Positions 21,102-40,393 of a DNA stretch of 64,000 nt are shown here, one piece after another. Under the pieces are notes generated by a model. It saw nothing but the letters and a program-made list of their open reading frames with translations. It ran no database searches and was not told the DNA's origin. The stretch spans positions 5,337 to 69,336 of the forward strand of contig CAKUUC010000010.1 in NCBI GenBank assembly GCA_934692625.1, written 5' to 3'. This DNA comes from an uncultured Candidatus Melainabacteria bacterium (GTDB lineage Bacteria > Cyanobacteriota > Vampirovibrionia > Gastranaerophilales > Gastranaerophilaceae). The position numbers and the translations under genes were made by a program. The number at the start of each line of letters is the position of its first letter. Positions within the stretch are counted from its first letter, which is position 1.

Positions 21102-21914
21102 TCATAGTTGGTACAAATTATTGAGTACCTCTCCTACTTTTTTATACGAAGTTTGTAATGAATGTGTATAAACATCTAAAGTTATAACAGATGAAGAATG
21201 CCCCATAAGTTTTTGTACCGTTTTGGGGTCAACACCATTGGTGACAAGAGAAGTTGAAAAAGTATGTCTTAAATCTTTGAATGTAAAATGACCAATTCCA
21301 CATGCATTTCTAACAGGGAGAAATAAACGATTAAATACATTATCTCCTAAGTACATTTCACCTTTACTATTTGGAAATACATATTTGCAACTACCAGTTT
21401 TTATTCTCTGTTCATTCAAAATCTTTTTTAAACGAGATGGTATAATAAATTTTCTATTAGAAGATTTTGTTTTAGGTGAGCATAAATTTTCTTTATATGC
21501 ACTATATTTTACGTTTATACAATTATTATCAAAATCTACATTTTCCCACATAAGAGCAACTAATTCCCCTCTGCGCATTCCTGTATAAACCGCAGTTGCA
21601 AGCATTGGGTAAAAATTAGGTTTAACTCTTTTGCATGTTTCAAATAGTTTTACTACTTCTTGTGGTGTTAATGCTCTTGCTTCTCTTGATACTACACTTT
21701 CGCAATGAACCTGTTTTACAACATTTTTAAAAATAGCTTCATTTTCAACTTGACGTTCAATTATAGAACCTAGCAAAATTTTATATTTTACCACACTGGC
21801 AGAACTCAAAAGTCTATCATTTTTGAGGTATAAAATAAAATCTTCTACATCTTTTTTACTTATTAAGTATAATTTTGCATTACCAAAGAATGGTAGACCA
21901 CTTAGATTAAACAT
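21102..21914 (-). CDS. int: Tyrosine site-specific recombinase (short, 270 aa)
   Basis: Catalytic signature GMRRGEL (R), KDLRHT (H/K-x-x-R), GHSS and VYTH (Y). The ORF is closed by an in-frame TAG 11 codons upstream, so no N-terminal arm-binding domain is present. Confidence 0.85.
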   Translation of the reverse strand: MFNLSGLPFFGNAKLYLISKKDVEDFILYLKNDRLLSSASVVKYKILLGSIIERQVENEAIFKNVVKQVHCESVVSREARALTPQEVVKLFETCKRVKPNFYPMLATAVYTGMRRGELVALMWENVDFDNNCINVKYSAYKENLCSPKTKSSNRKFIIPSRLKKILNEQRIKTGSCKYVFPNSKGEMYLGDNVFNRLFLPVRNACGIGHFTFKDLRHTFSTSLVTNGVDPKTVQKLMGHSSSVITLDVYTHSLQTSYKKVGEVLNNLYQL

Positions 21915-22097: not shown

Positions 22098-23087
22098 ATG
22101 AATAATAATTTAAAACACCTAATTAAAACATTCAAAGACGAGTTTGGAATTAAACTTGAAGATACAAACATTGATAATATCTTGGGTTTGAAAGAATTAC
22201 ATTTACAACCTTATATCTGGCGACCTTATTTAGAAAAGGAAGAACAATTTTTACAAACTCAGTTAAAAGCCTACTTATACAATGAACAACGTGCTAAGTA
22301 TAACAACCCTATAACAGAATGTGTATTTCAGGAGTATAAGAATAGATATATCCTTGTTTCATATTTGAGTGATTTTAGCAAAGTGAATAAACTATCCGAT
22401 TATACTGATATTATTATAACATTTTATGATGCTTATGAACCAAAGTGTAAAACAATTAGACGTACACTTTCAAAATGTGGTAAAAAGCCTAAACGTTATA
22501 CACGGTTTAGATTAAAACCTGATTCTATACCTGAAATATTTAGCCAAAAGTTCAATGAAATTGGACTATACTTAAACAGAACGAATGATTCACAACAGAT
22601 TTATACCCAAAGATTTTTACCAATGGTATATCTTATAAATAATAACCCTAAATTAACACCTAATATACAAGGACATCATACAAATTATGATACAAGTGTA
22701 GAAATTGGGTCTAAAACCTCTATTTTACCAATTCGTGAAGATTTGCATACAAAAGAGTTCCTCCCATCTAATATAATTGGTAGTGCAGGGTCTAATTTCA
22801 ATATTGCGAAAGGTATAATGTATTCTGATATGTTACAACTGAAGTATTTCAAGGTTAAACCAAAGAAGTATGACCACAAGGTACACGAGAATATTTTTGA
22901 TATTTTAGACCTCTATTTTATACAAAAACTTAGTATATCTGAGATTAAACGATATTTAGAACAGCATAAATCTAATTCTAAACTTGTGTATAACACCATT
23001 AAAAACATTGTAGAACACTTTAAACAATATACACCAGTTTTGACCAAAGAGAATATACAAAAGATAAAAAATAAGCAATTATCTTGA
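22098..23087 (+). CDS. Hypothetical island protein with C-terminal helix-turn-helix-like segment
   Basis: 329 aa. The C-terminal FDILDLYFIQKLSISEIKRYLEQ looks like a sigma-region-4/LuxR-type HTH. The rest is unrecognised. Confidence 0.5.
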   Translation: MNNNLKHLIKTFKDEFGIKLEDTNIDNILGLKELHLQPYIWRPYLEKEEQFLQTQLKAYLYNEQRAKYNNPITECVFQEYKNRYILVSYLSDFSKVNKLSDYTDIIITFYDAYEPKCKTIRRTLSKCGKKPKRYTRFRLKPDSIPEIFSQKFNEIGLYLNRTNDSQQIYTQRFLPMVYLINNNPKLTPNIQGHHTNYDTSVEIGSKTSILPIREDLHTKEFLPSNIIGSAGSNFNIAKGIMYSDMLQLKYFKVKPKKYDHKVHENIFDILDLYFIQKLSISEIKRYLEQHKSNSKLVYNTIKNIVEHFKQYTPVLTKENIQKIKNKQLS

Positions 23088-23230: not shown

Positions 23231-23551
23231 TTATAAGTTTTTACCAATCAAATATAATATTTTTAATTTATCTTCTGGAAGCCTTTCTACCAATGTAGCT
23301 ATTTCAGTTTTCAGATTTTCAACATTCTCAATCGGTTCAAAATCAAACAAATCTTTCATTGAACAGTTAAACACTTTTATCATATTTGTAAGAGTTTCTG
23401 GATTTGGGAAACTACTACCCAATTCAATGAGTGAAACTTGACGTTGCGTTCGCTCAATCTTTTCACCTAGCTCTTCTTGGGTTAAACCTATTTGATTTCT
23501 ATAATGCTTTATTTTCAACCCTAAAAGGGTTTTCAATTCTATATCGTTCAT
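23231..23551 (-). CDS. XRE-family HTH transcriptional regulator
   Basis: LKIKHYRNQIGLTQEELGEKIERTQRQVSLIELG. The start is moved to the ATG at 23551, preceded by GAGG. Divergent from the defence operon. Confidence 0.8.
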   Translation of the reverse strand: MNDIELKTLLGLKIKHYRNQIGLTQEELGEKIERTQRQVSLIELGSSFPNPETLTNMIKVFNCSMKDLFDFEPIENVENLKTEIATLVERLPEDKLKILYLIGKNL

Positions 23552-23630
23552 TAAAACCTCAATTAAATTATACGTGTTTGCACATCTTAATTGAACGTAA
23601 CTATATCTTGTAAAATTTAACGTTTTATTA

Positions 23631-23687
23631 TATAACATGTTGTAAAATATGATATTATACAGCTTATTTACAACATAAGATGTTATA
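23631..23687. promoter_or_regulatory. Inverted repeat in the divergent XRE/SNF2 control region (candidate operator)
   Basis: TATAACATGTTGTAAA (23631-23646) versus TTTACAACAT-AAGAT-GTTATA (23667-23687). Confidence 0.35.
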
Positions 23688-23706: not shown

Positions 23707-26700
23707 TTGGAAGTAATAGACAATATAAATAATATTTTAAAAGATGATTTGGCTACTACCATAAAGCCCAATAGTAAAGTGTCTATCGCTTCAGCATGTT
23801 TTTCAATCTATGCCTATAAAGAATTAAAAAAGCAACTTGAAAGCATTGATGAACTACGTTTTATCTTTACATCTCCAGCATTTGTAAAAGAACGAACCCC
23901 TAAAACACAAAGAGAGTTCTACATTCCTAGATTATCAAGAGAAAAAAGTTTATACGGTACAGAATATGAAATAAAACTCCGCAACGAATTAACTCAACGT
24001 TCTATCGCCAAAGAATGTGCAGAATGGATTAAAAGAAAAGTAAAATTCAAGTCTAATATAACAAATGAACAAATGTCTGGTTTTATAAATGTAGAAAGTG
24101 ATGATACTTATACATATTTGCCTGTTAATGGATTTACAACAACTGATATTGGTTGTGAAAAAGGAAACACTCTAACCAATATTGTTACAAGATTTGAAAC
24201 CCCACAAAGTCAAACTTTTTTAAAAACATTTGACACTATTTGGAATGACAAAACAAAACTACAAGATGTTACAGAACAAATCATTGAAAGTATTTCCACC
24301 GTCTATAAAGAAAATTCTGGAGAATTTATATATTTCATAACCTTATACAACATTTTTAATGAATTTTTGCAAGATATTTCAGAAGACAATTTGCCAAATG
24401 ATGCAACTGGATATAAAAACAGTGTAATTTGGAATAAGTTATTTGATTTTCAGAAAGATGCTTGCCTCGCAATTATCAATAAATTAGAAACATATAATGG
24501 TTGTATATTAGCTGATAGCGTGGGCTTAGGTAAAACTTTTACAGCACTATCTGTTATTAAATATTACGAAAACAGAAATAAATCAGTATTAGTTTTATGC
24601 CCTAAAAAGTTAAGCAATAACTGGGTTATGTATAAAAGCAATTACTTAAATAATCCCCTTGCAAATGACAGGCTTAGATACGATGTACTTTATCATACAG
24701 ATTTGTCAAGAGAAAAAGGATTTTCTAACGGTTTAGACTTGTCTTTAATCAACTGGGGAAATTATGACCTTATTGTAATTGATGAATCTCACAATTTCCG
24801 TAACGGCGGAGATATAAAAGATGACAAAGAAAACAGATACCTTCGTTTAATGAATAGAGTCATAAGAAGTGGAGTTCAAACAAAAGTTCTTATGCTTTCT
24901 GCAACCCCAGTAAACAACCGATTTAATGACTTGAAAAATCAACTACAACTTGCCTATGAAGGCGATACTAGAAAAATAGACTCTAAATTAAATACTAAAA
25001 AACCTATTAATGTAATTTTCAGACAAGCACAACAAGCATTTAATGAATGGTCAAAACTCCCAGCAGATGAAAGGACTACTGAATGTTTATTGAATATGCT
25101 TGATTTTGATTTCTTTGAATTGTTAGACAGTGTAACGATTGCTCGGTCAAGAAAACATATTGAAAAATATTATGATACATCAAGTATTGGTAAATTTCCA
25201 ACTCGTCTACCTGTAATTTCGTTAAGACCACCACTAACAGAAAATACCGAAAGGATAAACTACAACCAAATTTATGAACATATAAGTGCTTTAAATCTAA
25301 AAATTTATATGCCTTCATTATTTATATTTCCAAGTAAAGAAGCGAAATATTATGATGTAGAAGCTAAACAAGCAAATATCAAATCTTCTAAAACTGGTCA
25401 AATTGGTCGTGAAGAAGGTATTCGCCGTTTAATGAGTATAAATTTATTAAAAAGGCTTGAAAGCTCTGTCTACTCATTCAAATTAACTCTTACACGAGTA
25501 CAACAACTTATTACATCTACTCTTCAAAATATTGAAAATTTCAAGACAAATGGCACAAATTCTAATATTGAGGTCGATGATTACATTCACCCAGAAAATG
25601 ATTTTGATGATGACGATTTGAATACAAATTTATTTTCAATTGGTAATAAGCTAAAAATAGACTTTAACGATATGGATTATATATCTTGGGAAAGTCAATT
25701 ACAAGCAGACTTAGAGATTTTAAATGATTTGATATTTGAAATTGAAAAAATATCACCTGAAGAAGATGCCAAACTTCAAAAACTTTTAACGTTGATAATA
25801 AACAAAATAGAACACCCTATAAATCCTGATAATAAAAAAGTCATTGTATTTTCGGCCTTTGCCGATACCGCAGAGTATTTATACAAACATATTAGCAAGT
25901 ATGTAAAAGAAAATTTTGGTATAGAAAGTGCAATGGTTACAGGTTCAAAAGACGGTGTTACAACTTTATCAAAAATCAAAACAGATTTGAATACGGTTCT
26001 AACATATTTTTCACCACGCTCCAAAGATAAAGATTTAATCTATCCAAATGATAATAGACAAATTGATATTTTAATTGCTACGGATTGTATTTCAGAAGGT
26101 CAAAACTTGCAAGACTGTGACTATCTGATAAACTATGATATTCATTGGAATCCTGTAAGAATTATCCAACGTTTTGGGCGTATTGACAGAATTGGCAGTA
26201 AAAACGATGTAATACAACTGGTTAATTTTTGGCCAGATTTAACGCTTGATGAATATATCAACTTAAAAGCTCGTGTTGAAACAAGAATGAAAGTTACAGT
26301 TATGACTTCAACTGGAACAGGTGCAGACAATGTTCTTGATGAAAGCGAAAAAGAAGACTTGGAATACAGAAAAAGACAGCTCCAAAAACTACAATCAGAA
26401 GTTGTTGATATTGAAGATATGAACTCAGGCATTAATATTATGGACTTGGGACTAAACGAATTTAGGTTAGATTTGTTGTCTTATATGAAAGATAACCCTG
26501 ATGTTGAAAATTCTCCGTCTGGTTTACACGCAATAGTAAAAGGTGATAAAGAGTTAAAATCTGGTGTCATTTATATCCTTAAAAATGTATCAAACACCAT
26601 AAATATAGATAATCAAAACAGATTACACCCATTTTATATGGTTTATATCGCAGATGATGGAGAAGTTATTTGTAATTACTTACAACCTAAAAGCCTACTT

Positions 26701-26961
26701 GATTTGATGCGCAAACTTGGCAAACAAAATCCAGAGCCAAATAGTGAATTATGCAAAATATTTAATCAAGAAACACAAGATGGCAAAAATATGGGTAAAT
26801 ATTCAAAACTTTTGGAAGAAACAATTTGCTCAATTATTGACGTAAAAGATGAAAGTGATTTTGAAAGTTTGTTTTCTACTGGCGAAAGTTCTTATATGAA
26901 AAACACTATTTCTGGACTTGATGACTTTGAACTCATTTGTTTTTTGGTAGTAAAGGAGTAA
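23707..26961 (+). CDS. SNF2-family helicase with extra N-terminal (PLD-like/unknown) region
   Basis: 1084 aa, TTG start after AAGAGG. Motif I ADSVGLGKT, motif II VIDESHNFRN, SATPVNN, and helicase-C motifs DCISEGQNLQ and HWNPVRIIQRFGRIDRIGS. Confidence 0.9.
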   Translation: MEVIDNINNILKDDLATTIKPNSKVSIASACFSIYAYKELKKQLESIDELRFIFTSPAFVKERTPKTQREFYIPRLSREKSLYGTEYEIKLRNELTQRSIAKECAEWIKRKVKFKSNITNEQMSGFINVESDDTYTYLPVNGFTTTDIGCEKGNTLTNIVTRFETPQSQTFLKTFDTIWNDKTKLQDVTEQIIESISTVYKENSGEFIYFITLYNIFNEFLQDISEDNLPNDATGYKNSVIWNKLFDFQKDACLAIINKLETYNGCILADSVGLGKTFTALSVIKYYENRNKSVLVLCPKKLSNNWVMYKSNYLNNPLANDRLRYDVLYHTDLSREKGFSNGLDLSLINWGNYDLIVIDESHNFRNGGDIKDDKENRYLRLMNRVIRSGVQTKVLMLSATPVNNRFNDLKNQLQLAYEGDTRKIDSKLNTKKPINVIFRQAQQAFNEWSKLPADERTTECLLNMLDFDFFELLDSVTIARSRKHIEKYYDTSSIGKFPTRLPVISLRPPLTENTERINYNQIYEHISALNLKIYMPSLFIFPSKEAKYYDVEAKQANIKSSKTGQIGREEGIRRLMSINLLKRLESSVYSFKLTLTRVQQLITSTLQNIENFKTNGTNSNIEVDDYIHPENDFDDDDLNTNLFSIGNKLKIDFNDMDYISWESQLQADLEILNDLIFEIEKISPEEDAKLQKLLTLIINKIEHPINPDNKKVIVFSAFADTAEYLYKHISKYVKENFGIESAMVTGSKDGVTTLSKIKTDLNTVLTYFSPRSKDKDLIYPNDNRQIDILIATDCISEGQNLQDCDYLINYDIHWNPVRIIQRFGRIDRIGSKNDVIQLVNFWPDLTLDEYINLKARVETRMKVTVMTSTGTGADNVLDESEKEDLEYRKRQLQKLQSEVVDIEDMNSGINIMDLGLNEFRLDLLSYMKDNPDVENSPSGLHAIVKGDKELKSGVIYILKNVSNTINIDNQNRLHPFYMVYIADDGEVICNYLQPKSLLDLMRKLGKQNPEPNSELCKIFNQETQDGKNMGKYSKLLEETICSIIDVKDESDFESLFSTGESSYMKNTISGLDDFELICFLVVKE

Positions 26962-26964
26962 AAA

Positions 26965-27615
26965 TTGCTATTTAGTGAAAAGACACAATTAAATAGAATT
27001 ATGCCAAAGGCAAAGTTTATGAAACTTGCAGAACTATCAACACCTGTAAGAGCGGAATTTCAAAACAATGTTGAAAGACTGATTTTGGCAAATATTTTAC
27101 GACAAGAAACTACTAATATCTCAAAAGGTAAAAATGTTCAGGAGATAGATGTTTTTGAATTTTTGCTTAAAGAAAAACATGTGTCTAACAATTTGATAAA
27201 AGAAATTGATGTTGCAATACCTAAATATATTCTTTTCGTTTTCAAGTGTAATAATGCCATTCAACTTGCAATTTCTTATAAAGAGCCTTCTATAAATGAC
27301 AATAAATATAAGGTTATAAAGACCTATAAAACAGAATGGCAAAAACAAGAGGATATAAAGCTTGAAATTACAGGGCTTGACTTAGATGCAGTATATAACA
27401 GTTTTATAACCCAAATAGCAAATGGACAAGTAGAAACAGATGAAACAACAGATATAAAAAGTGCGGTCGAAAAATCTATCAATGTAGAAAAACTTCAAAA
27501 GAAAATTGAAACACTAAAATCCAAAATCCGCAAAGAACCACAATTCAATAAACAACTGATAATGAAAAAAGAATTGAAAGAACTTCAAAAAACATTGGAG
27601 GAAGTACATGGTTAA
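26965..27615 (+). CDS. DUF4391-like protein
   Basis: 216 aa, TTG start after AAGGAG. The pattern IMPKAKF...ILANILRQETTNI...VQEIDVFEFLLKEK...IPKYILFVF matches my memory of DUF4391, which typically follows SNF2 helicases. Confidence 0.65.
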   Translation: MLFSEKTQLNRIMPKAKFMKLAELSTPVRAEFQNNVERLILANILRQETTNISKGKNVQEIDVFEFLLKEKHVSNNLIKEIDVAIPKYILFVFKCNNAIQLAISYKEPSINDNKYKVIKTYKTEWQKQEDIKLEITGLDLDAVYNSFITQIANGQVETDETTDIKSAVEKSINVEKLQKKIETLKSKIRKEPQFNKQLIMKKELKELQKTLEEVHG

Positions 27616-29803
27616 AGATATAGAATTTAAACAAATTCAAAATAATAGAATTTTTGATAGTTCTTTTGAAAAATTTGAAAATAATAATATAATTTCATTT
27701 TCTCCAAAAGGAATTATAGTAATTTATGCCCCTAATGGAACAGGTAAAACGAGTTTTATTGAAGCTTTATCTGGCTTAAAAGATACTAAACTTAAGTTTA
27801 AATATAATAATAAAGAATATGACACAGGTGAAAACATTTTCTCTACTATTCAAGATCAGAATGATAGAAATATTATTCAAGGTAATACTAAAGATTTTTA
27901 TCTTGGTAAAAATGTTCGAAAAGAATTTGAATTGGAAGAAAGTTTGGAAAATATTAGAAAAAATGTTGTTGATAAAATTATAGAAATAGCTACAACTCAT
28001 AAAATGAAAAATTTATCTTCTTTGTTGTTAGATTGCTTTACTGAGAATGAAAAAGATTTCTTATCAAAGGCTATAAATAACAAAAACAAACTAAATAGTG
28101 CAACAAATAAAGATATTATTTCATTTGTTAATAAAATACCTGAAATAACCGAGTTAAAATATGATACTAATAAATTTAACTTTTTAGAAAATGATTTATC
28201 ACAAAAAACTTCCACAATTAAATTACTTGAAAATTTAAAAAATGAAGAACTTAAACAAAATAAAGATATTATAAAATTTGAAGAAAATAATGATGCAATA
28301 AAAATCCTAAACAAATATTCCAACCACAATTGTATAATATGTGATAGTGAAATTGATAGAGAATTATTGTTAAAAGCAAAACAAGATAAGCAAATATCTA
28401 TAAAAAAGACATTAGATGATAATACTAAAAAAATTTTAGAAGAAGTATTAAACATTGACTTACAAAAAGACCCTTTTAACATCAAATCAATTATTTTAAA
28501 AGCGATTGAAACTGGAGATAAGACGGTCTTAAATCCACTAATAGATGACATTGAAAAATATAAAAACTTTTTTAAAGAACAAATTTTATATGATATTAAA
28601 AATATTGAAGGGTTTAAAACATTTGAAAAAATAGAAACTAAATATAGTGATTTAATTGCAAAACAACCAGATATTGAAAATGAAGATATCGAATTTATCC
28701 AACAATATATTAAAGATTGTATGAATAAAGACTTTCAAATAAGCCGAGCTGAAGGGAAAAAATACTTACAAATACAACTTGATGAGCAAGATTTTTTAGG
28801 AAAAGATAGAAAAGATTTACCTTTAAGCACAGGTGAACAAAATTTTCTATCACTTTTTATGGAATTTCTAAGGGTCAAAAACTCTGAAAATCCAATAGTT
28901 GTAATTGATGACCCTATATCCAGTTTTGATTCTATTTATAAGAATAAAATTATATATTCAATTGTAAAAGTATTACAAAACAAACAAATTATCCTTTTAA
29001 CACATAATACTGATGTTATAAGATTATTAAAATCACAAGCTGGAAAAACTTTTAATTTGTATATATTAAACAATACTAAAGGTTCTGATAATAATGGATT
29101 TATTTCTATAAATAATAAAGAACTTAAACTATTAACTGATTTAGCAGAATTAACCAAATTTTTTAGAGAAGATGTTTTTGAACAAATAAAAGATGTTAAT
29201 CTATTTTTATATTCAATGATTCCTTTTCTAAGAGGATATGCACATATAACAGGAAATGAAGATGCGTATGAACAATTAACTAAATTAATGCATGGTTATA
29301 TGGCTGAAAATATCGATATTGCCGCTATTTATAAAAGTATATTTGGAAATAAGAACAACAAAATCCCAACGGTGTTTTCAAAAAATATTACTGATATTTT
29401 AAATCTAAAGGACTTTGGAGAAATTATCAATCAAGACAACTATCCTTTATTAAACAAAACATTAAGACATACCCTAACATATCTATATTTAAGATTACTC
29501 GTAGAAAAAACGTTAGTTGAAAAATTTCAAATAGATCCCAATAAACATAAGACGTTAGGAAGTATCATATCTGTTGCATTTCCAAATGATAAGAACACTA
29601 TAATATTGAAAAATCGTATTCGTTTGACATCTAAGAAAACATTAATCAATGAATTTAATCATTTTGAAGGGAATTTAAGTATTTTTCAGCCAGCAATAGA
29701 TATAACTGATGCAACTTTAGAAAAAGAAAAAAAAGATATTGAAGATTTTGTAAAAAAGTTAAAGAAAGAGGTAAGTGGTGGAAAAGATGAGATTGGAAAG
29801 TAA
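27608..29803 (+). CDS. ABC/AAA_13-type ATPase with coiled-coil zinc hook, RloC/PrrC-like (candidate anticodon nuclease)
   Basis: 731 aa. Walker A APNGTGKTS, a roughly 360-aa K/E-rich insert with CIIC (28331-28342), signature LSTGEQ, Walker B VVIDDP, LLTHN, then a roughly 250-aa C-terminal domain (LRHTLTYLYLRLLVEK, LINEFNHFEG). Confidence 0.7.
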   Translation: MVKDIEFKQIQNNRIFDSSFEKFENNNIISFSPKGIIVIYAPNGTGKTSFIEALSGLKDTKLKFKYNNKEYDTGENIFSTIQDQNDRNIIQGNTKDFYLGKNVRKEFELEESLENIRKNVVDKIIEIATTHKMKNLSSLLLDCFTENEKDFLSKAINNKNKLNSATNKDIISFVNKIPEITELKYDTNKFNFLENDLSQKTSTIKLLENLKNEELKQNKDIIKFEENNDAIKILNKYSNHNCIICDSEIDRELLLKAKQDKQISIKKTLDDNTKKILEEVLNIDLQKDPFNIKSIILKAIETGDKTVLNPLIDDIEKYKNFFKEQILYDIKNIEGFKTFEKIETKYSDLIAKQPDIENEDIEFIQQYIKDCMNKDFQISRAEGKKYLQIQLDEQDFLGKDRKDLPLSTGEQNFLSLFMEFLRVKNSENPIVVIDDPISSFDSIYKNKIIYSIVKVLQNKQIILLTHNTDVIRLLKSQAGKTFNLYILNNTKGSDNNGFISINNKELKLLTDLAELTKFFREDVFEQIKDVNLFLYSMIPFLRGYAHITGNEDAYEQLTKLMHGYMAENIDIAAIYKSIFGNKNNKIPTVFSKNITDILNLKDFGEIINQDNYPLLNKTLRHTLTYLYLRLLVEKTLVEKFQIDPNKHKTLGSIISVAFPNDKNTIILKNRIRLTSKKTLINEFNHFEGNLSIFQPAIDITDATLEKEKKDIEDFVKKLKKEVSGGKDEIGK

Positions 29804-31640
29804 GGATATTACTGACGAAAATATAAAAAAGATTTTGGAGTTGTTTCCGAATGTTGCAACTGAGGCGAAAGATGAAAATGGTGAATTAAGAACAGCGATT
29901 GATTTTGATAAACTAAAACAGGAATTGTCAAAAGATGTTGTTGAAGGTGAAGAATGCTATGCTTTTACTTGGGTTGGCAAAAAAGAAGCGATGGTTGAAG
30001 CAAATAGACCAATCAGAAAAACATTGAGACCTTGTAGAGATAAATCATTAAATTGGGAAGATACTGAAAACATCTACATAGAAGGTGATAACCTTGAAGC
30101 TTTAAAACTCTTGCAAGAAAGTTATTTAGGTAAAATCAAAATGATTTATATAGATCCACCTTATAATACAGGAAATGACTTTGTTTATAAAGATAATTTT
30201 ACGCAAGATAAAGATAGTTATAATGAAGAACTCGGCATAAAAGATGAAGATGAAAATAGATTGTTCCAAAATACAGAATCTAACGGAAGATTTCATAGTG
30301 ATTGGTGTTCAATGATATATTCAAGGTTAAAACTTGCAAGGAATTTATTATCAGATGACGGTGTAATTTTTATTTCGATTGATGATAATGAAGTTAGAAA
30401 TTTGAAAAATATATGTGATGAAGTCTTTGGATATGAAAATATAATCTCACAATTTGTGTGGGAAAAGAAAACTTCTGGTGGGCAACACGCACACAATGTT
30501 TTAGATTTCCACGAATATATATTAGCTTATGCAAAATCAATATCTCAAATAATTGAATTTGCTGTGCCTAGAACGAAAAAACAACTAGCATCATTCACTC
30601 AAGAAGATGAATTTGTTAAAGCTAGGGGAAGGTATTTATTAAGTCCATTAAAGTCTTGGTTGGATTATAGAAAAACATTAATTTATGATATAGAATGCCC
30701 AGATGGTTCAATACTTAATACTCAATGGGTTTGTGCGAAAGATACTTTTGAAAAATTAAAATATGAAAATCGAATTGTTTTTAAAAAAAATAATAAAGGT
30801 GAATGGTCTGTTTATAAAAAGCAATATTCAAACGAAGAGGGTGGCTTTGTAAAACCAGCATCGATAATCACTGAGTATGGTCAAACAATGCATGGCAAAA
30901 AAGAAATTAAAGAATTATTTGAAAATAAAGACATAATAAGTTTTCCAAAACCAACCAAATTGATAAAATACCTTTTACAAATGCAAAGCGAGTCAGATAT
31001 AATTCTAGACTTCTTCTCTGGTTCAGCAACTACTGCTCATGCCTGTATGCAACTTAATGCAGAAGATGGCGGAAATCGAAAATTTATTATGGTTCAACTT
31101 CCTGAAAAAACTGATGAAAAATCTGAGGCTTTTAAAGCTGGTTATAAAAACATTTGTGAAATTGGGGAAGAACGTATTAGACGTGCAGGGCAACAGATTC
31201 TGAATCAAGTTCAGAATGACGGTAAAAAGATTGATGTTGGGTTCAGAGTTTTCAAAGTTGATGATACTAACATGAAAGATATATATTATTCACCTAATGA
31301 AACAAACCAAAAACAATTAGGCTTATACGAAAGCAATATCAAAGATGACAGAACTGACGAAGATTTGTTATATGGTTGTTTGTTAGATTGGGGTGTAGAA
31401 TTATCGCTTCCACACAGAGTTGAAATTATTGATGACAAACGTGTTCATATAGTAGATGAAGATGCTCTTGTTGCGTGTTTTGAAGAAAATATTCCAGAAA
31501 GTGTTATTCGTAAAATTGCAGGCATGAAACCATTAAGAGTTGTATTCAGAGATAGTTCATTCAATAGTGACGACAACAAAATCAATGTTGAAGAAATATT
31601 CAAACTTATCACTCCTGATACAAGGGTTAAGGTTATTTAG
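29787..31640 (+). CDS. mod: Type III-like DNA methyltransferase (Mod; beta-class N6A/N4C)
   Basis: DPPYNTG (motif IV) precedes DFFSGSATTAHA (motif I). ATG at 29787 preferred over GTG at 29775. Overlaps the upstream gene. Confidence 0.9.
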   Translation: MRLESKDITDENIKKILELFPNVATEAKDENGELRTAIDFDKLKQELSKDVVEGEECYAFTWVGKKEAMVEANRPIRKTLRPCRDKSLNWEDTENIYIEGDNLEALKLLQESYLGKIKMIYIDPPYNTGNDFVYKDNFTQDKDSYNEELGIKDEDENRLFQNTESNGRFHSDWCSMIYSRLKLARNLLSDDGVIFISIDDNEVRNLKNICDEVFGYENIISQFVWEKKTSGGQHAHNVLDFHEYILAYAKSISQIIEFAVPRTKKQLASFTQEDEFVKARGRYLLSPLKSWLDYRKTLIYDIECPDGSILNTQWVCAKDTFEKLKYENRIVFKKNNKGEWSVYKKQYSNEEGGFVKPASIITEYGQTMHGKKEIKELFENKDIISFPKPTKLIKYLLQMQSESDIILDFFSGSATTAHACMQLNAEDGGNRKFIMVQLPEKTDEKSEAFKAGYKNICEIGEERIRRAGQQILNQVQNDGKKIDVGFRVFKVDDTNMKDIYYSPNETNQKQLGLYESNIKDDRTDEDLLYGCLLDWGVELSLPHRVEIIDDKRVHIVDEDALVACFEENIPESVIRKIAGMKPLRVVFRDSSFNSDDNKINVEEIFKLITPDTRVKVI

Positions 31641-31652
31641 GGAGGCGGAATA

Positions 31653-34600
31653 ATGAAACTTAAATTTAAACATCAAAAATTCCAATCAGACGCAGCCAAA
31701 GCGGTTGTTGATATATTCGCAGGTCAACCTTGTTTTTCTCCAACATCTTATATGATGGATATGGGATTTACCAAATCAGGAGATAACCAAATTAGTCAAA
31801 CATCGTTGCTTAATTATACTGGTTTTTGTAATCACGCAATAGTTCCAAACTTAAACAGAAATATAATCATTGACAACATGCAAAAAATCCAACGATTAAA
31901 CCAACTTGAACCATCAAAAGAAGTTATCAGCGGATTTAACCTAACTGTTGAAATGGAAACAGGTACTGGTAAAACTTATACTTACATAAAAACAATGTTT
32001 GAACTAAACAAACACTACGGTTGGAGTAAATTTATTATCGTAGTTCCTAGTATTGCGATTAGAGAAGGGGTTTACAAATCCTTTAATATTACGCAAGAAC
32101 ATTTTGCGGAAGAATACGGCAAGAAAATAAAATTCTTTATCTACAATTCTAAAAGATTAAACGAAATAGAACAATTCGCAAACGACGGCGGACTTAATGT
32201 AATGATTATCAACTCTCAAGCCTTTAATGCTCGTGGAAAAGATGCTCGTAGAATTTATATGAAGTTAGATAGTTTCCGCAGTAGAAGACCTATTGATGTA
32301 ATTGCAAAAACTAACCCAATCCTTATCATTGATGAACCGCAATCAGTTGAGGGTAAAATAACTAAGGAAAAACTAATTGAGTTTAACCCACTTATTACAC
32401 TTCGATATTCTGCGACTCCAAAAGAAAAATATAATTTGGTTTACAGACTAGATGCGGTAGAAGCTTATAACAAAAAACTTGTCAAAAAAATTGCAGTAAA
32501 AGGTGTTACTATTCAAGGCAGCGATGCAACAAACGGCTATTTATACCTACAAAATATAAATTTGTACAAAGACAAAGCACCAATGGCAAACATTGAATTT
32601 GACCAAAAAGGTACAAACAAAATTCGTAAAAATAGTAAACTTTTAAAAGAAGGTGACAATCTTTATCCTTTATCTGGTGAATTAGACGAGTACAAAAACA
32701 ATTATATTATTACCAAAATTGACGGCAGAGATAACTCCGTAACATTTTTAAACGGAACAAAGATTTTTGTCGGCAATGTCTTAGGCGAAGAAAACGAAGA
32801 CCAAATAAGACGTATTCAAATCCGAGAAACTATACTTGCACATATAGAAAAAGAACGTAAATTGTTTTTCAAAGGTATAAAAGTTTTATCATTATTCTTT
32901 ATTGATGAAGTAGCAAAATATAAGCAATATGATGAATCAAACAACGAACTAAACGGAATTTATGCGGATATGTTTGAAGAAGAATATGAAAATATTATGA
33001 ATGAACTTCAAATAAAATTCGGCGAAGATGATTATATCAGATACCTAAAAGGAATTTCCGCAAAAAGTACACATGCAGGTTATTTCTCAATCGATAAAAA
33101 AAGTAAAAAAATAATCAATTCAACCGAAGATAAAAAAGAAGGTGGTTCAAATGCTGTTGATGCTTTTGATTTAATCATGAGGAACAAAGAAAGATTACTT
33201 AGTTTTGACGAACCTGTTAGATTTATCTTTTCACATTCTGCACTTAGAGAAGGTTGGGATAATCCAAACGTATTCCAAATTTGTACACTTAGAAAAACAA
33301 ACAGCACAGATAAAAAACGTCAAGAAATTGGGCGAGGTTTAAGACTTTGCGTAAACCAAAACGGAGAAAGAATGGATTCTAGCAAACTAGGTGAAACCGT
33401 TCACGATATAAATATTTTAACCGTAATTGCTAATGAAAGTTATGCTAGCTTTACAGAAAAATTACAATCAGAAATTGCTGAAATCACAACCGATAGACCG
33501 CAAGAGGTTAATGAAAAACTATTTGAAGGTAAATTGATTACAAATGCGAATGGCGAAGAACAAACTATTGACATCAATTTAGCGAAAAGAATACACAATT
33601 TATTTATTCGAAACAATTATATTGATGACGATAATAAACTTACAGAAGTTTACTATGAAGCTCAAAAAACAGGAAATATTGCTCTCCCTGAAAACCTTGT
33701 AGGTTATGAAGATTCTATTATAAAAATTGTAGATATGATTTACAACCCAAATACAATGGCTCCTGAAAATTTGAACGAAAGCAAACCTAAACTTGAAATT
33801 GATAAAGAGAAATTAAACAAAAAAGAATTTCAAGAATTGTGGAAAAGAATTAACACAAAAACCGCTTATGTCGTGAATTTTGAAACAAATGAGTTGATAG
33901 AAAAATCAATAAAATCTATTGATAAAAACTTAGCCGTAACAAGGTTGTATTCAGTAATACAAACAGGTTCTATGGATAAAATCGATTCAAAAGAAGCTTT
34001 AGAAAAAGGAACAGCTTTTGATAACGGGAAAATTTACAAAGAAGATATAAAAACCTTACATTGTGGAATTAAATATGACTTAATTGGCAAAATCGTTGAA
34101 GAAACAAAACTTACTCGTAAATCCGTTGTAAAAATTTTACAAGGTATTCACTCAGAAACATTCAACCAATTTAAAATAAACCCAGAAGATTTTATCATTA
34201 AGGTTTCTAATTTGATAAATGAAGAAAAAGCAACTGTTATTATAGAACATATCACATATAACAAGCTGGAAGAAGCTTATCAGACGGATATATTTGCAGA
34301 ACCTGAGATGAAAACAATTACAAACAAAAATTCACTTCCTGTTGAAAAGAATTTGTACAATTATCTTGTATATGATTCTGAAGTTGAAAAAGAATTTGGT
34401 GAAGATTTGGATAAAAACACAGATGTTTCAGTCTATGTAAAACTTCCAAAAGGTTTTTATATTAACACTCCTGTTGGGCATTACAACCCAGATTGGGCAA
34501 TCGCATTTAATGAAGGCTCAGTAAAGCATGTTTATTTTGTTGCAGAAACAAAAGGCTCAATGAGTTCACTACAACTAAAACCTATTGAACAAGCCAAAAT

Positions 34601-34700
34601 AAATTGTGCAAGAGAGCATTTTAAAACGATTAGTTCAGATAGTGTTCAGTATGATGTTGTAGATAATTATCAGGCACTACTTGATAAGGTTATGAGGTAG
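31653..34700 (+). CDS. res: Type III-like restriction enzyme Res subunit (helicase + PD-(D/E)xK nuclease)
   Basis: 1015 aa. METGTGKTYT, IIDEPQ, YSATP, SHSALREGWDNPNVF and the C-terminal YNPDW...FVAETKG nuclease motif. GGGAGG RBS. Confidence 0.9.
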   Translation: MKLKFKHQKFQSDAAKAVVDIFAGQPCFSPTSYMMDMGFTKSGDNQISQTSLLNYTGFCNHAIVPNLNRNIIIDNMQKIQRLNQLEPSKEVISGFNLTVEMETGTGKTYTYIKTMFELNKHYGWSKFIIVVPSIAIREGVYKSFNITQEHFAEEYGKKIKFFIYNSKRLNEIEQFANDGGLNVMIINSQAFNARGKDARRIYMKLDSFRSRRPIDVIAKTNPILIIDEPQSVEGKITKEKLIEFNPLITLRYSATPKEKYNLVYRLDAVEAYNKKLVKKIAVKGVTIQGSDATNGYLYLQNINLYKDKAPMANIEFDQKGTNKIRKNSKLLKEGDNLYPLSGELDEYKNNYIITKIDGRDNSVTFLNGTKIFVGNVLGEENEDQIRRIQIRETILAHIEKERKLFFKGIKVLSLFFIDEVAKYKQYDESNNELNGIYADMFEEEYENIMNELQIKFGEDDYIRYLKGISAKSTHAGYFSIDKKSKKIINSTEDKKEGGSNAVDAFDLIMRNKERLLSFDEPVRFIFSHSALREGWDNPNVFQICTLRKTNSTDKKRQEIGRGLRLCVNQNGERMDSSKLGETVHDINILTVIANESYASFTEKLQSEIAEITTDRPQEVNEKLFEGKLITNANGEEQTIDINLAKRIHNLFIRNNYIDDDNKLTEVYYEAQKTGNIALPENLVGYEDSIIKIVDMIYNPNTMAPENLNESKPKLEIDKEKLNKKEFQELWKRINTKTAYVVNFETNELIEKSIKSIDKNLAVTRLYSVIQTGSMDKIDSKEALEKGTAFDNGKIYKEDIKTLHCGIKYDLIGKIVEETKLTRKSVVKILQGIHSETFNQFKINPEDFIIKVSNLINEEKATVIIEHITYNKLEEAYQTDIFAEPEMKTITNKNSLPVEKNLYNYLVYDSEVEKEFGEDLDKNTDVSVYVKLPKGFYINTPVGHYNPDWAIAFNEGSVKHVYFVAETKGSMSSLQLKPIEQAKINCAREHFKTISSDSVQYDVVDNYQALLDKVMR

Positions 34701-35346: not shown

Positions 35347-36687
35347 TTACTGGCTCATTACTGGCTCACTGATATTCAATTTGTAAATAATGTTTTTATT
35401 TTCTCCAGCCGAAACAAAAATATTTCTATCACATAAAGTCGTAATATCCCTTTTCGCTTGTGCTCGTGAAGCCTCTGTAATTTCTTGGTAGATTTTTGTT
35501 GTAATATACCCTTGTTCTACTACATATTTGATAGCCTTATTTTGTCTTTCATTTAAGCCATTGTATTGTTTGTACATCTGTAGAATAAAACCACCTTGAG
35601 ATGTTTCAAATATTGGAGCTGGAATCCCTTGTTTCAGGCATGCCGTAATCATACGTTTTATACCTGTGCCAAATTGTTCAACATAACCCGCCATATAGAT
35701 AATTTTCATAATCAATGGATTTCTTGACTTTGATGTATGAGATACGGTTAATTTATCAAGAGTTAAACCTCCAAATAAATCCCCAGAGTTATAAATCCAA
35801 ATACTATCTCCGAAAATTTTAATCTGTATTGCTGAACTAAAATCAAAGTAGTCTTTGTGAATAATAGCATTTAAAACAGCTTCTCTCAATGCTGGCAACG
35901 GATAATCCCAAATATCTTCTCTTTGAAATCCTTTAATTTCTGCTCTCATATTTATAAACAATTTCAAAACAGAGTCAACATCTTCAATTTGTTCAAATAA
36001 ATTACCTGTGATATTTTTGTCACTTATAATTACGGATTCATCATCACCCTTAAATAAACCAACCCTAATAGTTGCTGTCGATAGTAATTTTTGTGGATTC
36101 TTGCCAAATAATAAAATTGCTCCATTTGTAAGTTTATTATCAATAATAAGTTCTAATTGAGTCAAAAGGTCGGTTATACTTAACTCTTTTGCTTCTTCTG
36201 GCAATCTTCCCTTATTTGTCGCAAGTTTAACAAATTTTTGAACTGTTTTCTCATCTATATCATCAAGCGTAAAACTATTAGTTATAGAGTCCCAACTTAT
36301 ATCTTTTAATAATAATTTCTTTAGTTCTTCTTTATTTGCTTCTCTTGTCGTGTTTCCAACTCTTTTGTAATACTTATTTTTATAAGCAATAGGCACAGAT
36401 GATTTTTCAACCGTGATTTTTAGAATGTCTTTATCTTCAATATGTAAAAGTTCAACATTTGGTTGAATGCCTGTTAAATCAATAATTTTGTTAGTTAGTG
36501 CCTCTTGTTTTCCATTAGACAAATCAATACCTACAATATTTTTTGTTTCATCTTCAACACCAAGAATAATGCAACCCCCATCAGTATTTGAAAAGGCAGA
36601 AATAGACTTGAATAATCCTTCACTTACTTCTTGTTTATATTCAATAACATTGCATTCATCTAACAAATTTTCTAAATCTTTATTCAT
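35347..36687 (-). CDS. AlbA_2 (Schlafen-like) + HATPase_c_4 + C-terminal wHTH protein (often mis-annotated as RecG-like)
   Basis: VIEYKQEVSEGLFKSISAFSNTDGGCIILGVED is AlbA_2-like. REAVLNAIIHKDY is HATPase_c_4-like. The C-terminal NERQNKAIKYVVEQGYITTKIYQEI is a wHTH. Confidence 0.75.
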   Translation of the reverse strand: MNKDLENLLDECNVIEYKQEVSEGLFKSISAFSNTDGGCIILGVEDETKNIVGIDLSNGKQEALTNKIIDLTGIQPNVELLHIEDKDILKITVEKSSVPIAYKNKYYKRVGNTTREANKEELKKLLLKDISWDSITNSFTLDDIDEKTVQKFVKLATNKGRLPEEAKELSITDLLTQLELIIDNKLTNGAILLFGKNPQKLLSTATIRVGLFKGDDESVIISDKNITGNLFEQIEDVDSVLKLFINMRAEIKGFQREDIWDYPLPALREAVLNAIIHKDYFDFSSAIQIKIFGDSIWIYNSGDLFGGLTLDKLTVSHTSKSRNPLIMKIIYMAGYVEQFGTGIKRMITACLKQGIPAPIFETSQGGFILQMYKQYNGLNERQNKAIKYVVEQGYITTKIYQEITEASRAQAKRDITTLCDRNIFVSAGENKNIIYKLNISEPVMSQ

Positions 36688-37399: not shown

Positions 37400-40393
37400 T
37401 TATGCAGACAGTGTGAAGATTTCGTAAATCTCTTCGTCTGTAAGTTCTGTAATAATCTTTTCACCTTCGTAAACTGCCAAGTCTGCAAGTTCTTTTTTAG
37501 ACTTAAGCATTTCATCAATTTTTTCTTCAAAGGTTCCAAGTGTTATCATACGGTGTACCATTACGTTTTTATCTTGTCCAATACGATATGTACGGTCTGT
37601 TGCTTGATCTTCAACTGCAGGGTTCCACCACAAGTCGTAGTGAATAACGTTTGTTGCGCTGGTTAAGTTCAAACCTGTTCCACCTGCTTTTAGTGACAAT
37701 ATCATAACCTTGTATTGGTCTTCTGTTTGAAATTTTTCAATAAGTTCTTCACGTTGAGCAACTGTCAAACTTCCATGGAAGAACAATGGTTCAGTGTTGC
37801 ATTCTTGTGAAATTACTTTGCACAATATATCGCCCATTTCCTTGTATTGTGTGAAAATAAGCGTTTTTTCGTCATTATCGATAATGTTTTGAACCAAATC
37901 CAAACATTTTTCCATTTTACCGGACAATTCTCTGCCCATATCGCCTGATTTTAGGAATTGATAAGGGTGGTTACAAATTTGTTTAAGTGCTGTAATAAGT
38001 TTGAAGATGTTTCCACGTCTGTTAACTCCGGTAAATCCGCTAATTTTGGTCATCATTTCATTAAGAGTTTTTTCATAAAGAACTGCTTGAACCTTAGACA
38101 AGTAGCAGTATTCGTTGAGTACCATTTTTTCCGGCAAGTCGGAAATTACGTTTTTATCAGTTTTCAAACGTCTTAAGACAAACGGAGAGATTGACATTCT
38201 CAATTTGCCGGCTCTTGAATGTTCTTTAAATCTTTCGATAGGAATTGCATAACTTTTTTGGAATTCTCTCAATGAGCCCAAGTAACCTTTGTTGATAAAG
38301 TCGAAAATGCTCCACAATTCTGTTAATCTGTTTTCAACCGGTGTACCTGTCATTGCAATTTTTACATCTGATTTTAACATTTTGATAGCCAAAGTTTGTG
38401 CTGTGTCAGGGTTTTTGATGTTTTGGGCTTCATCAACAATAATCATACTCCAACCCTGTTTTTTGAGTTCTTCGACATCTATTCTCATTATTGCGTAAGT
38501 TGTTAAAATTACATCGTGATTAACATCGAGTTTTCTGTCTGCTCCGTGATAAATTACTGCATCAATTTCAGGGGCAAAAAGTTGAAGTTCTTTCATCCAG
38601 TTCCCCATAAGAGTTGTTGGACAAATTACTAAAACCGGTTTTTTCAAGCGGTTTTCTTCCTTCATTTTTAGGATTAAACTTATAACCTGAATTGTTTTAC
38701 CTAATCCCATATCATCGGCAATACATGCACCAAAACCTTTGACTATATTTGTCCATAACCATCTCAAACCGATTTCTTGATAAGGTCTTAATTCACCTTT
38801 CAGGCCTTTTGGTAATGTCATTTCTACAGGTTTTGTAAAGTCAGAGAGAACTCTTGCAAATGCTGCATCGTAGTCAAATTCATATTGATCAAGTTGACCT
38901 GATAATGATGCATGGATAAGTTCCATTCGTGACATAGATTTAAGGTTAGATTTTGCAATTTGTTCAAAAATCTTTTTGCCTTCTTCTTTGTCAACCAAAA
39001 CGTATTTATTTTTGTATTTGATTAGACCGTTGTTATTATCAAGTAATTTTTGGTATTCTTCCAAAGAAATTTTTTCATTTCCAATGGCAATTTCATAAGA
39101 AAATTCCAAGATATCGTCTAGTGATACTTTTGATGCGGAAGTATTGTTATTGATTAAGTTTGCTAAATCTTCCGAGCGGGATTCTTTTACTTTTGCATTG
39201 ATAGAAGCTCTCGGGATAACAATATTTTGCAATGCTTCTGGCAAAATAACTTCAATTTGTGCTTTTTGAAGATAGTATGTAGTTTGAGTAATGATTTTAT
39301 ATACTTCATTCAAATTCAAATCTAAGTATAATTTGTCTTCATCTTCAAAAACTTGTTCAAGTTCCGGCATATAGCGCAAAGCGTAATTCAATTGTTTTTC
39401 AACAATTCTTGAAATATCAGATGCTTTTGCTCCAAATACTTCATCTTCTGTATACAGACTGTCAATTAAGACACTTTCGTCAGTTTTTCTATTTTTGATA
39501 TAGACTTTTAGTCTAAACATATCATCATCTGCGTTTTCAATTTTGAAAAACGGAATTACGTCGTATTTACCCAAATATAGTTCATCAAACCACTGAGCGA
39601 AACTTTCTGCGTAATCTTTACCTTTGATAACTGCTTTTTGTTCTAAATCTTTTAATAAGTATTGACCAGATTTTACATCTTTAAATCTATACATTTTTAT
39701 GCCTAAAAATTTATAAATTACATAATTTAAGTATGTATAAATAAATTCATAGACAAAGTTTTTAGGAATTTCACCATCGATAAACAAATCTTCCGGCATG
39801 CATTCTTCAAATTGGTTGACAATTCTTGCCATTTTTGAATTGTTGATAATTGGTTCATAAACAATTCGGAACATTTGTCCGTAACGTTTGACTGTTGGAA
39901 TGAAATACAATTTTTCAATCAATTTCATAACAAAGTATGTCAATTTATTCAAATAGATAAATGTTGGTGATAAATCGGCTAAATCTACAATGTTTCCAAA
40001 TCCGCCAAAGTAGTCCATAATAATGTCCCAAGCCATAAAGTATCCGACTTCATCTTTGAAAACTTCTGACTTAAATCTGAATAATGAGCCTTTTGATTTT
40101 AAATAATATTGAAAATTGTTTGTTGGAGTAACAAAAAAGGATAGGTTATTTTTGTATGATAATTTAGAAGGTTTGTTTATCAAATAGAAATTTGTGTTAC
40201 GAGTAGGAGCGTTTGGGCTCAAAAATACACCGGCAAATTCGTCTTCAATGATTTGGTATATCATACTCAACGTGTAACGAAAATCTTTGTTTTTGAAATG
40301 TTCCGGATTTTCACTCAGGTTAAAAAATAACTCATCTACGTTGTTCTTTTTGAACGAAAAATCAATGTTTAAATCTTCTATTTTGTTACTCAT
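37400..40393 (-). CDS. SNF2-family helicase (chromosomal, RapA/YwqA-like)
   Basis: 997 aa. ADDMGLGKT, IVDEAQNIKN, MTGTPVEN, helicase-C LKAGGTGLNLT and WWNPAVEDQATDRTYRIGQ. Confidence 0.9.
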   Translation of the reverse strand: MSNKIEDLNIDFSFKKNNVDELFFNLSENPEHFKNKDFRYTLSMIYQIIEDEFAGVFLSPNAPTRNTNFYLINKPSKLSYKNNLSFFVTPTNNFQYYLKSKGSLFRFKSEVFKDEVGYFMAWDIIMDYFGGFGNIVDLADLSPTFIYLNKLTYFVMKLIEKLYFIPTVKRYGQMFRIVYEPIINNSKMARIVNQFEECMPEDLFIDGEIPKNFVYEFIYTYLNYVIYKFLGIKMYRFKDVKSGQYLLKDLEQKAVIKGKDYAESFAQWFDELYLGKYDVIPFFKIENADDDMFRLKVYIKNRKTDESVLIDSLYTEDEVFGAKASDISRIVEKQLNYALRYMPELEQVFEDEDKLYLDLNLNEVYKIITQTTYYLQKAQIEVILPEALQNIVIPRASINAKVKESRSEDLANLINNNTSASKVSLDDILEFSYEIAIGNEKISLEEYQKLLDNNNGLIKYKNKYVLVDKEEGKKIFEQIAKSNLKSMSRMELIHASLSGQLDQYEFDYDAAFARVLSDFTKPVEMTLPKGLKGELRPYQEIGLRWLWTNIVKGFGACIADDMGLGKTIQVISLILKMKEENRLKKPVLVICPTTLMGNWMKELQLFAPEIDAVIYHGADRKLDVNHDVILTTYAIMRIDVEELKKQGWSMIIVDEAQNIKNPDTAQTLAIKMLKSDVKIAMTGTPVENRLTELWSIFDFINKGYLGSLREFQKSYAIPIERFKEHSRAGKLRMSISPFVLRRLKTDKNVISDLPEKMVLNEYCYLSKVQAVLYEKTLNEMMTKISGFTGVNRRGNIFKLITALKQICNHPYQFLKSGDMGRELSGKMEKCLDLVQNIIDNDEKTLIFTQYKEMGDILCKVISQECNTEPLFFHGSLTVAQREELIEKFQTEDQYKVMILSLKAGGTGLNLTSATNVIHYDLWWNPAVEDQATDRTYRIGQDKNVMVHRMITLGTFEEKIDEMLKSKKELADLAVYEGEKIITELTDEEIYEIFTLSA

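Follow-up and report, generated by a model that had tools for sequence, protein, structure and literature searches.

An RloC-like ATPase gene with a candidate zinc hook as an optional cassette in a SNF2/DUF4391/type III restriction-modification operon of a Gastranaerophilales bacterium

What is a Rad50-like ATPase gene doing in the middle of a restriction-modification (R-M) operon? The question is raised by an open reading frame (ORF) at 27608–29803 (plus strand, as are all features of the operon given below) in a 64,000-bp stretch of DNA from an uncultured Candidatus Melainabacteria bacterium of the Gastranaerophilales (assembly GCA_934692625.1, contig CAKUUC010000010.1, positions 5,337 to 69,336), here called the window. 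The ORF has an ATG start and encodes a 731-aa RloC-like ABC/SMC-type ATPase. It was found by sequence, Pfam and PADLOC to lie between a gene for a DUF4391 protein and a gene for a type III Mod methyltransferase and to overlap both. An initial annotation, made from the letters of the window, had described it as an RloC/PrrC-like ATPase embedded in an R-M operon and a candidate suicidal anticodon nuclease. The ORF and every motif quoted there were recovered in the translation at the same positions, and the interpretation was partly supported: the ATPase part is related to RloC and the gene is an optional module, and from the comparisons made here the C-terminal domain does not appear demonstrable as an RloC/PrrC tRNA-cutting domain.

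The protein was shown to be an ABC/SMC-type ATPase with a C-lobe homologous to that of RloC and a head interrupted by a helical insert in which one CxxC motif is conserved. The Walker A motif or P-loop (APNGTGKTS, residues 41–49, with K47) is encoded at 27728–27754, and the ABC signature LSTGEQ (residues 406–411), the Walker B/D-loop VVIDDPISSFD (VVIDDP at residues 431–436) and the H-loop LLTHN (residues 463–467) are encoded at 28823–29008. Conservation was read from an alignment (A1) of 71 family sequences reaching down to 26% identity. P42, N43, G44, G46 and K47 were conserved in at least 90% of the sequences; S407, G409, D434, D435, P436, S438, S439, D441 and H466 were invariant, and R87 was also among the invariant or near-invariant positions. 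A full-length AlphaFold2 (AF2) model made from A1 (pLDDT 87.7, pTM 0.71) showed three parts, namely an ABC head (residues 1–100 and 373–500), a helical insert (101–372) and an all-alpha C-terminal domain (503–723). The arrangement first read from the letters, a Rad50-like split head with a central CxxC followed by signature, Walker B and H-loop and then by an extra C-terminal domain, was confirmed. The insert had been put at roughly 360 aa; Walker A and the signature do lie about 355 aa apart, but the helical part itself, read from DSSP of the AF2 model, comprises only residues ~101–372 (27908–28723) and about 13 short helices.

The CxxC motif (C242-I-I-C245, 28331–28342) lies at the midpoint of the insert and is a candidate zinc hook, placed by the AF2 model on a short beta knuckle. 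C242 was present in 71 and C245 in 66 of the 71 aligned sequences, and the family consensus is C-I-V-C-D, compared to C-I-I-C-D in the 731-aa protein; the hook motif of Rad50 is C-P-V-C-G. Since these are the only conserved Cys/His residues of the insert, a four-ligand zinc site would need two chains, and we infer from the sequences that zinc would be bound tetrahedrally by two chains as in the Rad50 hook. Foldseek comparison of the whole model with PDB gave the heads of SMC, condensin, cohesin, Rad50 and RecN with coiled-coil stumps and also the defence ATPases PtuA (retron Ec83/Eco7) and AriA, all with E-values of about 1e-5 to 1e-3. The top sequence-profile relative in PDB was Rad50 (E=6e-7).

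RloC was defined by Davidov and Kaufmann (2008; PMC2610378) as proteins of 658–897 aa, screened for ABC motifs, a CXXC and the pattern R-x3-E-x36-52-H; linkage to type I or III R-M was reported for 8 of the 73 cases. The 746-aa RloC encoded on Shewanella sp. ANA-3 plasmid NC_008573 (110255–112495, minus strand), listed in Table S1 of that paper, was used as a control. This control matched Pfam AAA_13 (1–713 of 713, E=4e-178) and PADLOC PDC-S06 (E=3e-266) end to end, and both are therefore RloC models; it also matched the PADLOC PrrC model through the catalytic His. In the searched full-text literature PDC-S06 was found in annotation lists only, with no functional description or test. Homology of the ATPase core of the 731-aa protein to RloC was shown by a match to AAA_13 (E=5e-12) and by hhalign comparison of A1 with an alignment of 40 RloC sequences (A4), which gave a probability of 96% and E=1e-9 over 160 columns. 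Compared to a single RloC, the block from signature to H-loop showed 41% identity over 79 columns (probability 94%, E=1.4e-7).

Besides this near-identical VVIDDPISSxD...LLTHN block with its significant profile–profile homology, the two proteins have in common the size class (731 aa compared to 658–897 aa), a helical insert with a central CxxC that splits the ABC head, an additional all-alpha domain at the C-terminus that bears an R-x3-E...N-x3-H pattern, and the nature of a single-gene system at times linked to type I/III R-M. They differ in the insert, which is shorter here (~270 aa; 360 aa from the Walker A Lys to the signature Ser compared to 468 aa in the Shewanella control), in the residue before the His, which is Asn here and Ser in RloC, and in annotation, as the family carries no RloC label in JGI/COG (RloC is COG4694). 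Homology thus makes the module of ATPase and hook RloC-like, and the resemblance of the effector domain to RloC is confined to short motifs.

The C-terminal domain (residues 503–723, 29114–29776) is the presumed effector and the only candidate for that role; because this is a single-gene system, the effector would have to be this domain. Modeled alone by AF2, it gave a confident and compact fold with a pLDDT of 90 and a pTM of 0.89. R542, M561, H562, R629, E633, N681, F683, H685, P695 and D698 were invariant in A1. They fall within three segments: R542 and M561-H562 (IPFxRGY...LMHGY, 29231–29293), R629-x3-E633 on a long helix comprising residues 613–640 (29492–29506), and SKKTLINEFNHFEGNLSIFQPAIDI (residues 675–699, 29630–29704), which contains N681, H685, E687, P695 and D698. 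Residues 681–700 were the best-conserved stretch of the protein, with a mean column conservation of 0.86 compared to 0.72–0.76 for the ATPase motifs.

The initial annotation had looked for an Arg-Glu-His active site in LRHTLTYLYLRLLVEK (residues 619–634) and LINEFNHFEG (residues 679–688). R629, E633 and H685 were each found in 71 of the 71 sequences, and R629-x3-E633-x51-H685 fits the R-x3-E-x36-52-H rule of Davidov and Kaufmann (2008; PMC2610378), as a pattern match only. The proposed triad was only partly right, because R629/E633 are specific to the family and are not conserved in a related group of prophage and plasmid ATPases described below, in which H685 is kept too. Judged by this conservation, H685 appears to be the strongest catalytic candidate, and R542, H562 and E687 seem at least as likely to take part as R629/E633. 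The catalytic His of RloC lies in W-I-N-D-G-S-H; the similar His motif is LINEFNH in the 731-aa protein and FINETYH in the prophage/plasmid group, and the apparent common pattern h-h-N-[DE]-x-x-H is a lead, not proof.

Relatives of the C-terminal domain were found in two places. The PADLOC model PDC-S46 (PDLC05023, 719 positions) covered residues ~407–710 of two family members, P0133 and P0200 (E=7e-19 and 1e-16), including the whole C-terminal domain. It matched nine of 40 family members and was the only PADLOC model to match the isolated domain; it gave no match at E<=1 with the 731-aa protein of the window. PDC-S46 is an untested PADLOC phage-defence candidate, and no mention, function or mechanism of it was found in the searched full-text literature. 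A scan of IMG/VR gave three full-length family members and, in addition, a third group of ABC ATPases of ~700–730 aa from prophages and plasmids. Their C-termini are colinear with those of the family, with the equivalent of R542 kept in all, that of H562 in most, and the core N681-E-x-x-H685-x-E687-N kept. Comparison by hhalign of the C-terminus of this group with an alignment of the family C-terminal domain (A2) gave weak support (E=0.03) and aligned the R542...H562 stretch. A bridge to RloC through the C-terminus of the prophage/plasmid group (E=0.07) had an inconsistent register and was not accepted, and an internal duplication of the C-terminal domain, as in a tandem HEPN-like arrangement, was likewise not accepted (E=0.14).

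The prophage/plasmid group includes an 'AAA family ATPase' of ~712 aa found, for the most part on plasmids, in 799 of 5,426 complete E. coli genomes. Examples are L140:6738–8879 and the E. coli sequences H1–H8, such as NZ_CP100904.1 33360–35498. The E. coli protein contains the N-E-x-x-H-x-E-N motif and equivalents of R542 and H562 and appears to be uncharacterised; its gene adjoins a type II R-M pair on one plasmid and is close to an integrase in one chromosome.

The most likely explanation, to which we give about an even chance, is that the gene encodes an RloC-like back-up anti-phage toxin, carried as an optional cassette in a SNF2/DUF4391/type III Mod/Res operon. The activation would follow the biochemistry of RloC, in which a dimer locked by the zinc hook is silent and the effector is unlocked by the joint action of ATP hydrolysis and DNA or DNA ends (PMC3458546). 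By this analogy, dimers of the 731-aa protein would be kept silent by the zinc hook, and ATP hydrolysis, driven when DNA or DNA ends are bound or when the adjacent restriction complex changes, would release the C-terminal domain. The freed domain would be a metal-independent RNase whose target, guessed by analogy, may be tRNA anticodon loops, so that translation would stop and the infection would be aborted once restriction fails. A toxic effector is likely by analogy, and a metal-independent RNase is plausible, as it agrees best with the invariant set of His, Arg, Glu and Asn in an all-alpha fold. The model is weakest in the chemistry of the effector, and a tRNA anticodon nuclease specifically is a tentative proposal that we consider rather unlikely.

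Several results weigh against the RloC-like back-up toxin, most of them concerning the C-terminal domain. An alignment of this domain to the RloC/PrrC anticodon nuclease domains was obtained neither by Pfam nor by PADLOC, hhalign or Foldseek, though the RloC control matched end to end. The match to AAA_13 was partial (residues 359–504 only, profile 458–598 of 713), and four relatives scanned singly matched AAA_13 only at ~394–609 of 713. The alignment of A1 with A4 consists of the signature-to-H-loop block and a low-confidence tail, where the triads fail to line up. Comparison of A2 with RloC by hhalign gave a probability of 0.2%; a permissive alignment put R629-x3-E633 on R651-x3-E655 of RloC at a non-significant E of 0.4–0.5, with the His motifs out of register. 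The isolated domain matched neither the PDC-S06 nor the PrrC model of PADLOC, and with ~230 aa it is ~80 aa longer than the domain of ~150 aa in RloC and not alignable to it. Foldseek of the C-terminal model gave a best PDB E-value of 1.1, with two HEPN chains at E~6.6, and nothing in BFVD; there was no match below E=0.4 in PDB or BFVD. The longest of the predicted helices of the insert has 30 aa (pLDDT mostly 78–93), and two long helices are not predicted. The prophage/plasmid group lacks conserved R629/E633, though it is the closest outside group with the His motif. Finally, JGI annotates this family as ABC-transporter ATPases and the RloC relatives as 'wobble nucleotide-excising tRNase'.

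The results on the C-terminal domain are what would be expected if the same sensor and abortive logic were coupled to another effector, a new toxic domain that is neither an RNase nor an anticodon nuclease, for example a DNase, and the likeness to R-x3-E...H were coincidental. We regard this as a minor but serious possibility. It accounts for a C-terminal domain with no sequence or structure link to RloC, PrrC or HEPN, common only to PDC-S46 and the prophage/plasmid group, and for the retention in that group of R542, H562, N681, H685 and E687 and not of R629/E633. Nothing meaningful was found with the isolated domain in Pfam, NCBIfam, PHROGs or PDB sequence searches, and tblastn with the domain gave no match in the plasmid and phage record collections. 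On the other side, the domain is all-alpha, with invariant His, Arg, Glu and Asn and without an evident acidic cluster for binding metal, a combination typical of metal-independent RNases, HEPN among them, and h-h-N-[DE]-x-x-H recurs in RloC, to which the ATPase part is closest. In addition, the linkage of HEPN domains to R-M is known, and those of PrrC and RloC are themselves described as atypical (PMC3710099). A wider proposal, which we hold only tentatively and think doubtful as a whole, is that the C-terminal domain, with its N-E-x-x-H-x-E core and R542/H562, is a new effector fold without a PDB or predicted-viral relative, common to this family, PDC-S46 and the prophage/plasmid group (~15% of complete E. 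coli genomes). The three would then make up a large branch, so far unrecognised, of defence proteins that couple a Rad50-like zinc-hook sensor to an effector, distinct from RloC and serving as a movable fail-safe in type III, ISP and II R-M operons.

The host operon of the window was identified as a type III R-M operon, with Mod and Res side by side in the same orientation. It comprises a SNF2-family helicase gene as the first gene (23707–26961; Pfam SNF2-rel_dom, Helicase_C and ResIII), the DUF4391 gene (26965–27615; PF14335, E=1e-37), the ATPase gene, mod (29775–31640; PADLOC MTase_III E=1e-227, Pfam N6_N4_Mtase) and the gene for the Res endonuclease/helicase (31653–34700; PADLOC REase_III E=9e-296, NCBIfam PRK15483 E=2e-107, Pfam RE_endonuc). 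The start codon of the ATPase gene overlaps the DUF4391 stop (ATGGTTAA), and its stop codon (29801–29803) falls within the 5′ end of mod, which starts at GTG 29775 or ATG 29787. Because of these overlaps, the ATPase gene is probably translationally coupled to both DUF4391 and mod.

The embedding was shown to be polymorphic. In a closely related locus (L054) with 93.5% DNA identity in the left flank and 96–98% identity of the SNF2, DUF4391 and Res proteins, the blastn homology ends at 27617 and resumes at 29757, and 75 bp replace ~2.1 kb (L054:5846–5920 compared to 27618–29756 of the window). The approximate limits of the cassette compared to this empty allele are 27623–29756. The 75 bp keep a six-codon mini-ORF, ATGGATAAAGTGTTTTAA, at the position of the ATPase start, and AAAG is present at both cassette junctions; the AAAG and the mini-ORF could represent a deletion scar, microhomology used in recombination, or chance in AT-rich DNA. 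Another locus (L055), 95.7% identical across the region, is occupied. The GC content of the cassette is 23.5%, compared to 29–31% for its neighbours.

With L054 included, 12 of 13 metagenomic operons anchored on DUF4391 had the organization SNF2-DUF4391-Mod-Res without the ATPase gene. The order SNF2-DUF4391-ATPase-Mod-Res was found in six of 32 distinct family loci (L001, L007, L008, L010, L014 and L040), and approximately 26 of the 32 had no conserved neighbour and no SNF2, DUF4391, Mod or Res homologues. Ten proteins flanking solitary copies were sampled, and five were R-M related: a Type ISP enzyme (L011), Res-like helicases (L016 and L021), an HNH/AlwI-type nuclease (L015) and an EcoRI methylase (L037). 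Further copies of the family were found in defence islands or among housekeeping genes, and in a neighbour-joining tree embedded and non-embedded copies were interleaved. The occurrence of empty and occupied alleles, the solitary copies, the low GC content and the interleaved tree therefore show that the ATPase gene is a self-contained, mobile and optional module that has repeatedly become associated with restriction systems of several types. The suggestion that this embedding represents a new host context for a fail-safe is weakened, because type III-linked RloC orthologues were already reported by Davidov and Kaufmann (2008; PMC2610378) and because the gene is optional and mostly found outside this operon.

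The same loci bear on the proposal that the protein is an integral accessory subunit of the SNF2/DUF4391/type III system, acting not as an independent toxin but as an SMC-like ATPase that tethers or loads DNA to assist restriction, in the manner of DndD/PbeC or HmaC. This would agree with the overlap of the gene with both operon neighbours, with its occurrence in the same DUF4391–Mod position in ~45% diverged operons (L001, L010, L014 and L040), and with weak PADLOC matches to PbeC and LmuB within the ATPase part of the 731-aa protein. We nevertheless consider it improbable, given that the 12 of 13 operons without the gene include L054, whose left flank is 93.5% identical in DNA, that most family loci have none of the four operon partners, that copies adjoin unrelated R-M types or housekeeping genes, and that there was no match to HmaC. 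An Hma system was likewise considered and rejected, with a weak match to HmaA and none to HmaC in PADLOC.

A housekeeping Rad50/RecN-like DNA-repair ATPase, adjacent to R-M genes by chance, would fit the Rad50, SMC and RecN heads found as top PDB relatives and the zinc-hook-like CxxC but is highly improbable in view of the missing Mre11/SbcD partner, a patchy spread over many phyla resembling horizontal gene transfer, the presence/absence polymorphism and low GC content, the defence-island and R-M neighbours, and the extra conserved C-terminal domain, which Rad50 lacks. The likeness to Rad50/SbcC comprises the SMC-type ABC head and a helical insert with the C-x-x-C hook in its middle; the insert here is much shorter (~270 aa) and segmented, and the distribution is of a defence type. 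No metallophosphoesterase gene was found in the operon, nor a conserved partner across the family loci.

The RloC-like back-up toxin was also compared with PrrC and with known embedded genes. PrrC, the tRNA-Lys anticodon nuclease linked to EcoprrI, is characterised by an uninterrupted ABC domain and the PrrC box. PrrC proteins of 341–416 aa are without a coiled-coil/hook insert and are always found within a type Ic hsd locus that silences them (PMC2610378). Like the 731-aa protein, PrrC combines an ABC ATPase with a following C-terminal effector, has an R-x3-E...H pattern and sits inside an R-M operon as a presumed fail-safe. Unlike PrrC, the protein here is twice as long, contains a hook in a 270-aa insert and occurs in a type III context, and the family is usually solitary, with no obligate linkage to type Ic hsd genes. 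The PADLOC PrrC model gave no match at E<=1 with the 731-aa protein and matched relatives in the ATPase part only. The label PrrC-like given at first fits neither the size of 731 aa nor the type III context. ABC ATPases were reported as the commonest family embedded in multi-gene defence systems in a survey of Hma, BREX, DISARM and type I R-M (Payne et al., 2024; bioRxiv 10.1101/2024.01.29.577857). By analogy, the module matches this 'embedded defence gene' pattern, being an optional gene nested between core restriction-type genes and far commoner outside them; it differs in that the SNF2/DUF4391/type III operon was not among the host systems of that survey and this family was not among the tested systems.

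Members of the family, ~715–760 aa in length, were found to be widespread. Among the candidates scored, 1,110 homologous clusters were found at E<=1e-3, and a filter-free search of 50%-identity representatives gave 502 matches, 137 of them at E<=1e-30. The closest relatives are from Melainabacteria/Gastranaerophilales (74% and 65% identity), and the family is also present in Clostridia, Synergistaceae, Elusimicrobia, Sphaerochaeta, Saccharibacteria, Dehalococcoidales, Desulfovibrionaceae, Margulisbacteria and others.

Further observations were made on the operon itself. The centre of mod (30446–30940) showed no nucleotide homology to L054 or L055, in contrast to flanks with 91–96% DNA identity, and Mod was 66–67% identical overall to the proteins of these two loci, compared to 96–100% for the neighbouring proteins. 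The pattern resembles the exchange of a target-recognition domain, which would give different methylation specificities in near-identical operons. The SNF2 protein matched the PADLOC model C3a139 'HKD+Snf2' best, over its full length (E=7e-125). No PLD/HKD domain was detected by Pfam in its N-terminal ~240 aa (23707–24430) despite the name of this model, and this region may be a degenerate or divergent nuclease domain. Other junctions of this operon type are also occupied in L010, L040, L014 and L058–L065, with ORFs of 339–381 aa between Mod and Res, ORFs of 115–216 aa around DUF4391, and Mod–Res gaps of ~310–550 bp (L058–L060 and L062–L065); the SNF2/DUF4391/type III operon appears to serve as a hotspot for embedded genes in general. 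In the ~45% diverged, occupied operon L001, a second Mod-like methyltransferase and a helix-turn-helix gene were found upstream of SNF2 (L001:3833–5677), and directly after Res a Gabija-like pair of an OLD-family ATPase/TOPRIM nuclease and a UvrD-like helicase (L001:17213–19965).

In the window, the region downstream of Res contains a gene for a protein with Schlafen AlbA_2 and HATPase_c_4 domains and weak PADLOC pAgo-associated matches (35347–36687, minus strand) and a gene for a 997-aa SNF2 + DUF3670 helicase that is ZorD-like by PADLOC (37400–40393, minus strand; E=1.5e-135). This region may be part of a larger defence island. Upstream of the SNF2 gene are genes for a tyrosine integrase (21102–21914, minus strand) and an HTH_3 regulator (23231–23638, minus strand) and, between them, a 329-aa ORF with no family match (22098–23087, plus strand); housekeeping genes (GH57, Na/Ala symporter) lie beyond the integrase and HTH_3 genes. 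The whole R-M cluster may be carried on an integrative element.

ABC-ATPase fail-safes in R-M loci (PrrC and RloC), the linkage of RloC to type III R-M and the PDC-S46 listing of relatives were already known. New are the large RloC-related family with an unclassified effector domain, its precise and polymorphic embedding between DUF4391 and Mod, and the motif link to a widespread group of E. coli plasmid and prophage ATPases. Were the protein simply a divergent RloC, the result would be better annotation and no new mechanism. The C-terminal domain provides a defined target for finding a divergent HEPN-type tRNase or a new effector, and the occupied and empty alleles of one operon constitute a natural experiment on the gain and loss of a fail-safe. 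If the RloC-like back-up toxin is real, the RloC/PrrC principle, in which a DNA-sensing ATPase governs a suicidal translation blocker behind restriction, would reach further than has been recognised and would extend to a large and broad family, mostly of uncultured anaerobes, that is now labelled 'AAA family ATPase'.

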